This document shows positions 2,098 to 32,055 of a DNA stretch of 35,343 nucleotides, piece after piece. Under the pieces are notes generated by a model that saw nothing but the letters and a program-made list of their open reading frames with translations, made no database searches and had not been told where the DNA came from. This DNA is from a virus. The stretch is taken from the IMG/VR virus record IMGVR_UViG_3300045988_157753; one strand, given 5' to 3'. Position numbers and translations under genes: made by a program. Position 1 is the first letter of the stretch; every line of letters begins with the position of its first letter.

Positions 2098-2898
2098 TTA
2101 CTCCCCCAGCAGCTTGCCCCAGGTGCCGCGGCCTGCGATGCCGTCCGCGCCAAGGCCGTACTTGGTCTGGAACTTCTTCAGCGCCGTCTCCGTGCCGCTG
2201 CCGAAGTCGCCGTCCGCACCGGCCGCGCCGCAGGAGAACCCGTAGGCGATCAGCGCCGCTTGCAGGGTCTTCACGTCCGCGCCCTTCATGCCGCGCTTGA
2301 GCATCCGTACCTGCATGGGCAGCGTCGTGTCCTTCTCCGCAGGCACCGGCACCGGCGCGTTGGCGCTCTCCACAAAGGGCACGCCCAGCGCCGCGCACAG
2401 GCCCTTGGCGATGGTCTCGCCGATCAGGGTGGTGTTGTCAATGATCCACTGTGCAACACTGGGAACATCGTGGAAGTCCACCTCGATATACACCGTCGTA
2501 GCGGCAGGGTGCTTCACCTCGTACAGTGCGGGATACGCCCGGATGACATCCGGCGCACCCGGCGTCACAGGCCCCAGCACATTCAGCACCGCCTGACACG
2601 CCTTGTACCCGGCGCTGTTCCGGTCACCGCTGTAACAGAACAGGTGCGTACCGCTGGCCTTGCCGTTGCAGGCATTGGAATGAATAGGGACGTGCAGGTC
2701 AGCCTTGAAGCGGTTGGACGCCGCCACACGGTTCTGCATGGTGTCGTACTGCCCCAGCATCACTTCCACGCCGGAGCGCTCCAGAGCAGTCTTACAAGCC
2801 CATGCAATACGCCCGCACTGGATGGCCTCGGTGGTGTCGCCCACCGCGTAGGTGTTCCGACGCTGGTCGCTGGGGGACAGATACACCCGCTTAGGCAT
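2098..2898 (-). CDS. Endolysin: N-acetylmuramoyl-L-alanine amidase (Amidase_3-like) with C-terminal PG_binding_1 domain
   Basis: N-terminal YLSPSDQ...HVPIHSNA amidase motifs; C-terminal GMKGADVKTLQAALIAYGF...DGDFGSGTETALKKFQ...GLGADGIAG peptidoglycan-binding repeat. Confidence 0.9.
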   Translation of the reverse strand: MPKRVYLSPSDQRRNTYAVGDTTEAIQCGRIAWACKTALERSGVEVMLGQYDTMQNRVAASNRFKADLHVPIHSNACNGKASGTHLFCYSGDRNSAGYKACQAVLNVLGPVTPGAPDVIRAYPALYEVKHPAATTVYIEVDFHDVPSVAQWIIDNTTLIGETIAKGLCAALGVPFVESANAPVPVPAEKDTTLPMQVRMLKRGMKGADVKTLQAALIAYGFSCGAAGADGDFGSGTETALKKFQTKYGLGADGIAGRGTWGKLLGE

Positions 2899-3106
2899 CG
2901 TTCTTCGCCTCCTTGTGGTACTGCGCCGTGCTGATGCACAGCACCGCGCCGAGGAACGTGTCCACGGCGGTGATGGTGGTCACCACCTCGTCGGCGTAGG
3001 GCCACGCCCACACCGCCGCCAGCGCCGCGTACAGCGTAGCCACGGCGGGCATAACGATGATGACCAGCCATTTCATAATGTCGTATACCTTGTTGTTCAG
3101 CTTCAT
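2891..3106 (-). CDS. Holin (Dp-1/phage_holin_1-like, two TM helices)
   Basis: 71 aa, YDIMKWLVIIVMPAVATLYAALAAVWAWPYADEVVTTITAVDTFLGAVL; immediately upstream of the endolysin, overlapping it. Confidence 0.8.
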   Translation of the reverse strand: MKLNNKVYDIMKWLVIIVMPAVATLYAALAAVWAWPYADEVVTTITAVDTFLGAVLCISTAQYHKEAKNDA

Positions 3107-30405: not shown

Positions 30406-30654
30406 TCAGCACGCCTTTGCCCAGACCGCGAACAGCTCGTCCTTGGGGATGCGCGCCGCCTTGGCGATAGCCGCGATCTCCTTTCCGGAGCAGCTGGGCA
30501 GGTCCTTGATCCGGGCATAGATGGTGCTGCGGCTCATGCCCGCCGCCCGCGCCATGCCGTCCAGACCGCCGTGCAGGGCGTAGGCCTGCGCCTTGATGCG
30601 GACCGCCATGTCCTTGGCGGCGTCCTTCTTCGCGCTCAAAATCGTCCGGGGCAT
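30406..30654 (-). CDS. Small HTH protein
   Basis: GMSRSTIYARIKDL HTH-like segment; ATG 30654 in TGATG junction, 7 nt after GAGGAGG. Confidence 0.6.
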   Translation of the reverse strand: MPRTILSAKKDAAKDMAVRIKAQAYALHGGLDGMARAAGMSRSTIYARIKDLPSCSGKEIAAIAKAARIPKDELFAVWAKAC

Positions 30655-31103
30655 CACTGCACCTCCTCTGCGTACTGCAAGGCCAGTGCGGCCTGCACGA
30701 TATCCCCCAGCTCGCAGGTGATCTCCTCGAAAAGCGCCCGCTCGCCGTCGCTGATGACGCCGTCCTCGGCGATCTCCATCAGCTGGTCACTGCGGTGCGC
30801 CTCCGCGAAGCGCATCACCCGCCGCACCAGCTTGATCACCGCCACCGGCAGCGGCTCCGGCCGCGCCTCCTGCACGCAATCCGGCAGCAGCGCCGTCTTG
30901 AGCTGCAGGTGCTGCAAGCCCAGATACTGCACGTTGTACACCGCGCACATCCGCGCCACGATGTCGTCGCCCGGCAGCCGCTCTCCGGACTCGTAGGCGC
31001 GTATGCTGGTGTCGCTGACCGCCAGCCGCTCCGCTGCGGCCTCCTGCGTCAGACCCGCCGCTTTCCGGGCGGTCTGGTAGATGTTTCCGCCGTCCCTTGC
31101 CAT
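30654..31103 (-). CDS. XRE-family transcriptional regulator with C-terminal helical domain
   Basis: ARKAAGLTQEAAAERLAVSDTSIRAYESGERLP; ATG 31103 preceded by AAAGGAGGAG (the track's TTG start at 31109 is less likely). Confidence 0.8.
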   Translation of the reverse strand: MARDGGNIYQTARKAAGLTQEAAAERLAVSDTSIRAYESGERLPGDDIVARMCAVYNVQYLGLQHLQLKTALLPDCVQEARPEPLPVAVIKLVRRVMRFAEAHRSDQLMEIAEDGVISDGERALFEEITCELGDIVQAALALQYAEEVQ

Positions 31104-31135
31104 GGACAACTCCTCCTTTCTCCGCTATGCTGGTC

Positions 31136-31327
31136 TTAGTGAGCAGCGTCGCTCATCAGCTCCGTCTCTGTACACTGCAAGATCGCGCACAGCATGGCGC
31201 GGTGCTTCTTGCAGGGCGTCGCCTTGCCTCGCTCCCAATAGCTGATCGCAGACCGGTCGACGTTCAGCTTGTCCGCCAGCGCCTCCTGCGTCATGCCGGT
31301 GCGCTCGCGGTACTCCTTGATCCGCAC
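31136..31327 (-). CDS. Cro-like XRE-family HTH regulator
   Basis: IKEYRERTGMTQEALADKLNVDRSAISYWERGK; first gene of the leftward operon; GTG 31327 preceded by GAGGTG (GTG 31336 is an alternative). Confidence 0.8.
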   Translation of the reverse strand: MRIKEYRERTGMTQEALADKLNVDRSAISYWERGKATPCKKHRAMLCAILQCTETELMSDAAH

Positions 31328-31344: not shown

Positions 31345-31356
31345 GTGAAATTTCAC
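31345..31356. promoter_or_regulatory. Operator-like perfect palindrome GTGAAATTTCAC in the divergent control region
   Basis: Lies between the cro-like start and the -35 of the plus-strand promoter; shares the GAAATTTC core with sites at 32010-32027 and 32038-32055. Confidence 0.55.
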
Positions 31357-31357
31357 C

Positions 31358-31386
31358 TTGCGCGCCGGAAAAAAGGGTGGTATAGT
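31358..31386 (+). promoter_or_regulatory. Plus-strand promoter of the lysogeny module: -35 TTGCGC, 17 nt, TGg-TATAGT
   Basis: TTGCGC 31358-31363, spacer 31364-31380, TATAGT 31381-31386 with TG at 31378-31379. Confidence 0.55.
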
Positions 31387-31488
31387 GTTCATGTCAGCAA
31401 ACAACTACACACCCGTTTTTCCGAGGGGGATACAACCTGCGCAAGACCCAGTGGAAACCCTCAACTTTTTGAACGCAAAGGGAAAGAC

Positions 31489-31881
31489 ATGAAAAACGAC
31501 AGTCAGATCACCGCCTGCGACGCCAAGGTGCTGCGCTACTTCCGCAAGCATGGCCCCGCGCCAACCGCTGACGCTAAAAAGGCGCTTGCAGATGTCAGCT
31601 CAGTCGGACACCGCATCGTCGCGCTGGCTCATCCCGATGCCGCGCTTCTCTCCGAAGACGTGGACACCGATCTGTCGGCAACGCGGGCGCTCCATCAGGG
31701 CCTCGGCGTCTACCGCATCACGCCCAAGGGCGAGATTGCGCTGGACGACTACCTTGCGGAGCGAAAGCGGTACTGGAAGGAGCTTCTGCTGAAAAGCCTG
31801 TGGTTCCCTATCGCAGTATCGTTTGCAACTGCCTTACTAACAACACTGTTAACACTGATGTTAACAAGGCAGTTACGATAG
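31489..31881 (+). CDS. C-terminally membrane-anchored protein (lysogeny module, function unknown)
   Basis: ATG 31489 after GGGAAAGAC; 130 aa; soluble N-terminal domain, C-terminal TM WFPIAVSFATALLTTLLTLML. Confidence 0.65.
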   Translation: MKNDSQITACDAKVLRYFRKHGPAPTADAKKALADVSSVGHRIVALAHPDAALLSEDVDTDLSATRALHQGLGVYRITPKGEIALDDYLAERKRYWKELLLKSLWFPIAVSFATALLTTLLTLMLTRQLR

Positions 31882-31963
31882 AAAGCGCGATCTGGACGAC
31901 AAGGATCATCCACACGTCGCAGTCTTCCAGCTTCTCGACCAGCCAGTCCGAAAACCGTCGCAT
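31808..31963 (-). CDS. Unannotated 51-aa membrane peptide (MRRFSDWLVEKLEDCDVWMILVVQIALSIVTALLTSVLTVLLVRQLQTILR)
   Basis: ATG 31963 preceded by GAGGGAGGTGG plus 4 nt; own promoter 32004-32032; below the 60-aa cutoff of the ORF track; 3' 74 nt overlap the convergent 31489-31881 gene. Confidence 0.5.
   Translation of the reverse strand: MRRFSDWLVEKLEDCDVWMILVVQIALSIVTALLTSVLTVLLVRQLQTILR
31827..31874. repeat. 48-bp imperfect palindrome centred on GTTAAC (20 of 24 positions pair)
   Basis: AACTGCCTTACTAACAACACTGTTAAC / GTTAACACTGATGTTAACAAGGCAGTT; encodes TM helices in both convergent ORFs; possible bidirectional terminator/processing hairpin. Confidence 0.7.
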
Positions 31964-32003
31964 TTTTCCACCTCCCTCTCGTTCTCACCTGAGGGACAAG
32001 CCA

Positions 32004-32032
32004 ATCATAAATGAGAAATTTCTCATTGTCAA
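32004..32032 (-). promoter_or_regulatory. Near-consensus minus-strand promoter: -35 TTGACA, 17 nt, -10 TATGAT, operator in the spacer
   Basis: Minus strand reads TTGACAatgagaaatttctcattTATGAT (32032-32004). Confidence 0.7.
32010..32027. promoter_or_regulatory. 18-bp perfect palindrome AATGAGAAATTTCTCATT (operator candidate)
   Basis: Fills the spacer of promoter 32004-32032. Confidence 0.65.
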
Positions 32033-32037
32033 TACAA

Positions 32038-32055
32038 AATGCGAAATTTCTTATT
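32038..32055. promoter_or_regulatory. Degenerate second copy of the operator (AATGCGAAATTTCTTATT)
   Basis: Two differences from the 32010-32027 site; centres 28 bp apart. Confidence 0.5.

Follow-up and report, generated by a model that had tools for sequence, protein, structure and literature searches.

A putative early-lytic membrane micropeptide encoded antisense to a membrane-anchored winged-helix protein in human-gut temperate phages

The IMG/VR virus record IMGVR_UViG_3300045988_157753 (35,343 nucleotides (nt); this whole stretch is called the window below) is a siphovirus-like prophage of ~35 kb, the minus strand of which carries the lytic genes. The present study concerns a minus-strand open reading frame (ORF) for a single-pass membrane peptide of 51 amino acids (aa), together with a convergent plus-strand gene for a 130-aa protein, hereafter the partner; the two share 74 nt at their 3' ends. 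The small ORF is very probably a real gene whose peptide is made, because its Shine-Dalgarno (SD) sequence and ATG are conserved, replacements in its transmembrane (TM) helix are hydrophobic only, it survives loss of the partner, and the partner codons opposite to it carry the skew expected of dual coding. Judged from sequence comparison, the overlapping pair is old and conserved, since both frames and their start signals are kept across diverged lineages, and the peptide appears to be a paralogue or mimic of the juxtamembrane/TM helix of the partner, encoded in inverted orientation. On balance, the likeliest role of this early-lytic, tail-anchored peptide would be that of a mimic which antagonises, at lytic onset, the membrane-anchored winged-helix protein whose gene it overlaps.

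Dual coding and conservation of the gene pair

The pair occupies the following positions.

31808-31963, minus strand: 51-aa micropeptide gene, ATG at 31963-31961; conserved charged N-terminus (residues 1-17), TM helix (residues ~19-43) and tail RQLQTILR
31489-31881, plus strand: 130-aa partner gene; predicted MarR-like winged helix (residues ~9-77) and long C-terminal helix ending in a TM anchor (residues ~104-127)
31808-31881, both strands: dual-coding overlap of 74 nt, the TM helices being read from opposite strands with codon position 1 facing position 1

The sequence GAGGGAGGTGG-AAAA-ATG comprises the SD and the start of the 51-aa ORF. The charged N-terminal segment of the peptide, MRRFSDWLVEKLEDCD, is followed by the C-terminal TM helix, for which a Kyte-Doolittle mean of ~2.4 was calculated by hand over residues 20-38. 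A preliminary description of this DNA had listed the SD, the single-TM ORF and the 74-nt overlap, all of which were found at the positions given above. Near-identical ORFs appear as hypothetical proteins in public metagenome/nr data, and a profile search with the peptide gave 38 clusters at 90% identity, all of full length and with an undisrupted frame, in which length variants arise through in-frame indels. Residues 1-17 are the most conserved (entropy 0.25 vs 0.78). Among 26 distinct single-step variants of the TM helix, none introduced a polar or charged residue, a stop or a proline, compared with 45 of the 151 accessible changes (P = 3.5e-5); the same test gave P = 0.006 for the non-overlapped part alone. 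The small ORF also stays intact in relatives (numbered with the prefix L) in which the body of the 130-aa gene was deleted (L009-16) or truncated and frameshifted (L030, L053).

The strongest evidence for the small ORF as a gene is, in our reading of the sequences, the codon usage of the partner. Third-position A occurs in 13 of the 23 partner codons lying in the overlap and in 10 of 107 elsewhere (P = 2e-6), and the skew pooled over nine lineages reached P = 1e-16. Sister phages with a non-overlapped partner gene exhibited third-position A in 1-2 of these 23 codons. The relative frame was identical in 9/9 lineages, with the third position of the partner facing the second position of the peptide, so that A in the former places T in the latter and leads to hydrophobic residues. 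Openness of the antisense frame was dropped as evidence, because two of the three antisense frames were open in nearly all loci, controls included.

For the broad partner family, a back-translated WLKNAWIPI pattern was used, and DNA of distant members was fetched without prior knowledge of its downstream content. In 15 of 17 lineages, a convergent small TM ORF (27-103 aa) with an SD and a start codon was found to run into the 3' end of the partner gene, always in one and the same relative frame; the overlap measured 53-104 nt, and exactly 74 nt in three lineages. This pairing held down to ~25-30% partner identity. L058 possesses no convergent small TM ORF at this place. Examples of the convergent small TM ORFs are as follows.

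L060: MRRFWEWLRRNWELIVFSIIVPIIVSAATTILSMPLLEALFRALQA
L065: ...YMKEYGVTIAVSVLASVLGNLLIMWLQKTL
L071: MPMKRFWKEYWRPIVVSAVASAVCNWLLLR

The L060 peptide connects the MRRFSDWL type of the window with a 33-aa IAVSAATT type, which are hence regarded as one family. In L068 and L071, the cassette is located directly after cro, behind a divergent CI/Cro pair, whereas it precedes the cro-like gene in the clade of the window. The peptide belongs to a family of small single-pass peptides that are promoter-proximal in the early-lytic operon of many temperate phages of Clostridia-like hosts. The relatives were found solely in human-gut metagenomes and viromes; species-representative genomes scanned with the partner profile and the leader pattern gave 0 matches, and annotated phage records yielded just unannotated faecal contigs.

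The 130-aa partner gave no match in Pfam, and its match in PHROGs was phrog_12206, to which no function is attached. An AlphaFold2 model (predicted local distance difference test 82) consists of a minimal winged helix and a single long helix (residues 79-129) ending in the TM segment, without the N- and C-terminal dimerisation helices of MarR. When this model was submitted to Foldseek, nearly all of the top 50 matches were MarR, MepR or MexR, at a weak level of similarity (template-modelling score ~0.55, E ~7e-3). The family contains 113 close clusters and 243 representatives at 50% identity, and its members have a common C-terminal motif, RELWLKNAWIPILVS, followed by the TM segment. The partner is modelled as a member of a broad, uncharacterised family in which a MarR-like winged helix is joined to a C-terminal anchor; regulation and exclusion of incoming DNA at the membrane are candidates for its role in the lysogen. 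As a separate observation, the partner-gene deletion variants L009, L013 and L030 have a common left junction (...CCGC, ~31798-31801, 8-10 nt past the small-ORF stop) and differing right junctions, suggesting that the border of the dual-coding region is a hot spot for recombination or deletion.

Likeness of the peptide to the partner anchor, and the palindrome

The preliminary description was correct in noting that both ORFs end in similar TM sequences. The ends TALLTTLLTLMLTRQL and TALLTSVLTVLLVRQL gave a local alignment z of 9.7, and comparison of a peptide with the juxtamembrane/TM segment of its own partner against shuffles also yielded high values for L071 (9.3), L067 (7.9) and L070 (7.7); pairwise z ranged over 3.7-9.7 in 8 of 13 lineages. 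When a profile of 13 peptides was aligned with that of 14 partner C-termini using hhalign, a probability of 96.6% (E 4.9e-10) was obtained, in which FxxEYW..I.VS was paired with ELWLKNAWIPI.VS. The control comparisons, namely each profile against the phage's own two-TM holin, gave 1.3% and 0.3%. The homologous arms are inverted to each other, and in deep lineages they are offset by ~50 nt with a third-position identity of 0.33-0.58. This argues that the likeness in those lineages exists at the protein level and is not a by-product of a hairpin. In the window, the offset is just 13 nt, and identity at the three codon positions is 0.65, 0.87 and 0.74. Since the two homologous coding arms are almost superimposed here, the DNA of the window is palindromic and both proteins are alike at their ends. 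The likeness of the peptide to a segment of the partner points to inverted duplication of a TM-coding segment, rather than de novo birth, as the origin of the peptide gene.

The palindromic elements of this region are listed below.

31827-31874: imperfect palindrome of 48 bp, 20 of 24 pairs, centre GTTAAC; core of a long hairpin at 31805-31896
31847-31854 and 31859-31866: two perfect 8-bp palindromes, TGTTAACA, spaced by 12 bp in the middle of the 48-bp palindrome, each with a GTTAAC/HpaI site

The 48-bp palindrome, as reported in the preliminary description, was confirmed and is non-random, being unique in the window and absent from all of 200 Markov resamples. The minus strand folds with -46.2 kcal/mol (z -5.6 vs shuffles) and the plus strand with -39.1 (z -5.0). 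This high stability on both strands, together with the lack of another terminator between the two transcription units, favours the view that the palindrome is a plain bidirectional terminator or 3' stabiliser and the small ORF an untranslated by-product, a possibility that had been raised in the preliminary description. However, no U-tract follows the hairpin on either strand, and a terminator scan made no call there. Although the gene pair persists in all types, a strong hairpin is confined to the lineage of the window: it already decays among members of the 51-aa type, the 46-aa type has a weak one and the 33-aa type none. In L048, the convergent genes lie 1 nt apart without a hairpin. For the 51-aa type, RNAalifold returned -0.17 as the covariation term; several pairs were broken and a single one was compensatory, which gives no support for a selected hairpin. 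Taken together with the multiple coding signatures of the small ORF, these observations make the terminator view highly improbable. The palindrome is best read as the footprint of two similar helices lying nearly in register on opposite strands, and not as a conserved terminator. A protein, such as the winged-helix partner, might bind at the TGTTAACA pair.

A further explanation is that the peptide is an independent early accessory membrane protein, which might serve, for instance, to exclude superinfecting phages, to take over the host or to block division; the overlap would then reflect compaction, and the helix likeness would be a side effect of palindromic DNA and TM composition. This is consistent with the mosaic first-gene slot described in the next section, where sister phages carry unrelated small proteins, and with the occurrence of each gene alone, the peptide being retained in abundant phages without the partner and the partner without the peptide in L035 and L048. 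The strong conservation of the N-terminal 17 residues likewise suggests that the peptide makes a specific cytoplasmic contact of its own. The recurrence of pairing and overlap in 15 of 17 lineages at partner identities of ~25-30% speaks against an independent protein. The likeness between peptide and partner depends on residue order (z as high as 9.7; hhalign E 4.9e-10, the controls being negative), and it persists where the arms are not superimposed and the DNA forms no stable palindrome. We regard this explanation as rather unlikely, and continue with antagonism of the partner by the peptide as the favoured one.

The early-lytic switch and convergent transcription

The elements upstream of the small ORF are as follows.

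32004-32032, minus strand: early-lytic promoter (P_R equivalent), -35 TTGACA at 32032-32027, 17-nt spacer, -10 TATGAT at 32009-32004
32010-32027: operator O1, perfect 18-bp palindrome AATGAGAAATTTCTCATT, filling the promoter spacer
32038-32055: operator O2, AATGCGAAATTTCTTATT, 16/18 identical to O1 and 28 bp upstream of it, near the putative lysogeny-direction promoter
31964-31997, minus strand: conserved leader with SD GGGAGGTGG at 31976-31968, 4-5 nt before the ATG, and a small CCCUC/GAGGG hairpin
32062-32089, plus strand: putative lysogeny-direction promoter TTGTAT-16-TATATT beside O2, assigned from position only
33059-33379, plus strand: 106-aa Xre/CI-type repressor (Pfam HTH_26/HTH_3), the presumed binder of O1 and O2

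The early promoter, present with its spacer palindrome just as the preliminary description had reported, scores 11/12 against the consensus and is the sole site in the window within one mismatch of TTGACA-N17-TATAAT (0 expected from 100 shuffles). Its transcript would start near 31997. Two O1-type operators were hit in the window against 0 expected; the second copy, O2, had been overlooked previously and lies at the same place in all immunity types. When sequences were scanned for the conserved leader, 46 unique loci were recovered. All of them (46/46) keep the -35, 17-nt spacing, -10, leader (nearly identical), SD and ATG, but they differ in the sequence of the spacer. The palindrome within the spacer and the copy upstream of it vary as one unit, in step with the recognition region of the divergent repressor, and this co-variation is one-to-one in at least four immunity types.

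Pairing 1: SGVGTSFITDINKGT with AATGAGAAATTTCTCATT
Pairing 2: SGVGSSFINDLERGK with AATCCGCAATTGCGGATT
Pairing 3: AGVGVSFINDIERGQ with ATTTCGTGATTACGAAT
Pairing 4: AGVGTSFITDINKGQ with AATGAGTAATTACTCATT

Because the operators change together with the recognition region of the repressor, they are considered immunity-specific, and this bears out the suggestion that the promoter is repressor-gated. From the predicted repressor binding at two such operators, it follows that the early promoter should be silent in the lysogen and fire on induction or infection. In most relatives, the repressor gene and the early promoter diverge directly from each other, and in L002-type loci a positional counterpart of the lysogeny-direction promoter, TTGTCG-16-TATAGT, sits 5' of this gene. 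In the window, an inserted exonuclease-BRCT gene intervenes.

One leader and ATG serve four alternative first genes: the 51/50-aa peptide, its 46-aa variant, its 33-aa variant, and unrelated soluble proteins of 53 or 60 aa. First-gene type and immunity type assort independently. Since the same leader also drives unrelated genes irrespective of immunity type, the promoter is part of the switch, being the general early-lytic promoter of the prophage under repressor control, and not one dedicated to the peptide; the notion of a dedicated toxin promoter was not supported. The soluble first genes were observed in L021, L029, L035 and L048 (53 aa, M[EV]DLR..., or 60 aa) and gave no match in Pfam, PHROGs or NCBIfam. 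The mosaic junction of the alternative first genes coincides exactly with the start codon. L004 and L008 were suspected of carrying the cassette twice in tandem, which was ruled out, L008 having an extra inserted helix-turn-helix (HTH) gene.

Downstream of the small ORF, the early operon and the elements facing it are arranged as follows.

31358-31386, plus strand: putative convergent promoter of the 130-aa gene, TTGCGC-17-TGgTATAGT, with extended -10, as read from the sequence
31366-31423, minus strand: long hairpin followed by U6, terminator-like, between the cassette and the cro-like gene, in all relatives
31345-31356: 12-bp palindrome GTGAAATTTCAC, at ~-42 from the presumed start of the plus-strand promoter and ~10 nt upstream of the cro-like SD, unique in the window
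31136-31327, minus strand: 63-aa cro-like Xre HTH gene, the next gene of the early operon after the small ORF
30654-31109, minus strand: 151-aa CII-like HTH regulator (phrog_6499), 3' of the cro-like gene

Replication genes follow further 3' of the 151-aa regulator, with HTH_36 and DnaB genes (DnaB seen in relatives). This locus hence has the composition of a CI/Cro-type switch: a divergent repressor gene, at least two allele-specific operator copies at promoters (predicted binding), and cro-like, regulatory and replication genes downstream. Its promoter and operators are an ordinary representative of this known type.

The convergent promoter was found in every locus, including those in which the body of the 130-aa gene is deleted, and diverged relatives keep it as TTGACC-17-TGgTATGAT. 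It faces the early promoter at a distance of ~600 bp, and a terminator scan found no canonical terminator between them, so that the early and partner transcripts should collide and pair. The statement in the preliminary description that the peptide mRNA is necessarily antisense to a convergent transcript holds by this layout. The 3' arm of the 31366-31423 hairpin is the antisense of the plus-strand promoter -10, and this hairpin could attenuate early transcripts before the cro-like gene; a separate promoter of the cro-like gene 3' of it was sought by eye, and none was convincing. In L060, the hairpin/promoter module, which may act as a terminator, a promoter or both, is found at the opposite side of the cassette, namely within the 5' untranslated region of the small ORF. 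The GTGAAATTTCAC palindrome follows the cro-like allele, not the immunity type. A side observation was made in L021 (sense ~200-365), where a different small gene (~55 aa, not a winged helix) lies behind the convergent promoter and overlaps the 3' end of the first lytic ORF, indicating that convergent 'cargo' behind the plus-strand promoter is a general feature.

Typical toxins of type I toxin-antitoxin systems are shorter than 60 aa and have an N-terminal TM helix followed by a charged, often Lys-rich C-terminal tail (PMC6563280), and such systems of Firmicute prophages include txpA/RatA, bsrG/SR4, yonT/SR6 and the C. difficile CD2517.1-RCd8 type (PMC6563280, PMC5848175, PMC3834814). The preliminary description had drawn on this type, and on holins and abortive infection. 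A module similar to it would consist of a membrane-damaging peptide and a plus-strand transcript, coding or not, as antisense antitoxin. A hydrophobic single-pass peptide of <60 aa in a prophage and 3'-overlapping convergent transcripts are indeed shared with txpA/RatA, bsrG/SR4 and yonT/SR6 (PMC6563280, PMC5848175), of which yonT is also polycistronic. The deletion variants retain the plus-strand promoter, leader and overlap, and the remnant would be a short antisense RNA. This promoter sits, however, in the conserved hairpin, which alone could explain its retention, and a non-coding transcript would exist in the deletion variants only; elsewhere the antisense partner is the mRNA of a conserved protein. 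The peptide differs from the described toxins by a reversed layout, with its TM helix C-terminal and no Lys-rich tail. It would moreover be made in each lytic cycle from an early-lytic operon promoter that is off in the lysogen, and never under heteroimmune superinfection. Searches of Pfam, NCBIfam, PHROGs and PADLOC, in which permissive E-values were also allowed, linked the peptide to no toxin or holin family; PADLOC likewise had no match for the 130-aa partner, and Rfam gave chance hits only and no antitoxin RNA. This leaves a type I-like or abortive-infection module improbable, and membership of a toxin or holin family was not upheld. A holin identity of the peptide was also rejected because it has no holin match and the lysis cassette is located ~29 kb away, at the far left of the window (2098-3106).

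2891-3106: holin (phrog_881, E 1.8e-25), adjoining the endolysin gene
2098-2898: amidase endolysin of the same lysis cassette

At the right end of the window, the plus-strand lysogeny module contains the exonuclease-BRCT gene, the 106-aa repressor, a lipoprotein and the integrase. Situated between the switch and the repressor gene, the first of these (RNase_T exonuclease + BRCT; 32121-33038, plus strand) is an insertion that not all relatives carry. L002, L003, L005-8, L013 and L018 lack this gene, which matches the PADLOC candidate-defence models DEDDh (E 1e-34) and PDC-S48 (E 8.5e-33). CapH, an HTH regulator belonging to CBASS operons, is similar to the repressor (PADLOC capH, E 1e-6), and no gene for a CapP/ImmA-like protease was seen beside the repressor gene in the window. 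A terminator-like hairpin with a perfect 12-bp stem (33379-33405) lies 3' of the repressor gene, next to a 36-aa ORF (33407-33517, minus strand, MNEWEEDLLALFDSLDEAAQAEALAAALKIISGEIL) that was gene-called in all relatives examined. The 147-aa lipoprotein-like gene (33640-34083, plus strand, signal MKKISVFLMAAVLALSICAC) lies between repressor and integrase, a position typical of Ltp/Sie-type exclusion genes. L019 has a bPH-domain protein in its place, and L013 a 299-aa TM2-domain protein beside the lipoprotein gene.

Proposed mechanism, related systems and meaning

Antagonism of the partner by the peptide could be realised as follows. At lytic onset, the partner would be shut off at two levels, RNA and protein. 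As for the RNA, the strong early promoter would direct transcription against the partner gene, disturbing the partner transcript and pairing with it. At the protein level, the micropeptide would associate with the C-terminal helix of the partner, which is the sole available dimerisation element beside the minimal winged helix, and this association would poison or sequester existing partner, like SinI on SinR. That the peptide binds and inactivates the partner helix at lytic onset while convergent transcription silences the partner mRNA is put forward tentatively, by analogy. A wider form of this proposal, which we hold to be somewhat more doubtful, is a two-level toggle that a wide range of temperate phages of the gut would have within their lysis-lysogeny switch, and in which ~70 bp would encode both a membrane-tethered DNA-binding protein of the lysogeny phase and an anchor decoy of the lytic phase. 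This toggle would be a so far undescribed commitment or anti-exclusion device that arose via inverted duplication of a TM segment.

Several observations weigh against antagonism of the partner by the peptide, or against the evidence that carries it. Composition can inflate the similarity of TM segments, although the shuffles and the holin controls argue otherwise. The MarR-like assignment leans on fold similarity with an E of just ~7e-3. Variable sites in the 51-aa type are spread evenly over the codon positions (11/12/11), which makes this test of the small ORF uninformative, and a rough hand count over codons 1-27 gave 6 synonymous and 10 non-synonymous changes, indicating that purifying selection is weak or that the peptide is fast-evolving. 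A natural deletion in L041 removes the TM helix and destroys both genes (at sense coordinates ~75-125, it joins the peptide N-terminus to the antisense of the partner 5' end; L041 also has a 24-nt tandem duplication, CTGCAAGCGCCTTTTTAGCGTCAG). L035 and L048 keep the partner with a non-overlapping soluble first gene that ends 1-10 nt from the partner stop, and common phages in which the partner was lost still have the peptide. As each gene occurs without the other in some phages, neither strictly requires the other. Finally, the terminator-like hairpin before the cro-like gene renders the transcript architecture, and with it the predicted read-through, uncertain.

In the SinI-SinR pair of Bacillus subtilis, as in microproteins generally, a small protein encoded by a neighbouring gene is homologous only to the C-terminal oligomerisation helix of a regulator and inactivates it by forming a heteromer. 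The pair described here is similar in that an adjacent small protein is profile-homologous to the C-terminal juxtamembrane/TM helix of its partner. It is different in that the shared module is a membrane anchor, the genes overlap on opposite strands behind opposing lytic and lysogenic promoters, and the antagonism is only predicted. The immunity switch of lambda comprises O_R/P_R/P_RM together with antisense elements, namely the P_RE transcript and OOP RNA. Face-to-face promoters, pR and pL, are found in coliphage 186 (PMC5423467, PMC7708051). As in these two switches, the repressor gene in the window is divergent to a multi-operator early-lytic promoter, and an opposing promoter of lysogeny direction permits interference and antisense pairing. 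Unlike them, the convergent promoters are ~600 bp apart with a dual-coding pair in between, the first lytic cistron encodes a membrane peptide in place of Cro, and the proteins are not homologous beyond the generic HTH. A short coding ORF opposite a gene for a membrane-anchored winged-helix protein is also known from laoB, which lies opposite a CadC-like membrane-anchored regulator gene of E. coli O157:H7 (PMC5810103), and further antisense overlaps have been described (PMC9927249, PMC7457138). Such cases are young, lineage-restricted, of de novo origin and embedded in the mother gene, whereas the present pair is deeply conserved and overlaps at the 3' ends only, and its small protein resembles a segment of the mother protein itself.

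The micropeptide/partner pair was not described in the family libraries or the literature searched, and it joins known ideas, i.e. an antisense-overlapping gene, a microprotein mimic and convergent switch promoters, in a new arrangement. Old and well-supported antisense-overlapping coding pairs are rare in bacteria and phages; the present one offers an internal control, the non-overlapped sister phages, as well as a clear codon signature. Genes of 27-51 aa and their overlaps are mostly missed or labelled 'hypothetical' in annotation. This pair is located at the lysis-lysogeny core of many uncultured temperate phages of the human gut, and in its partner family (~240 representatives at 50% identity) a winged helix and a membrane anchor are united in one protein. 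Should the peptide act as a decoy of the anchor helix, phages would have a novel means of abolishing a lysogeny-phase function at induction, and, if true, a new gene would have been born through inverted duplication of a transmembrane segment.

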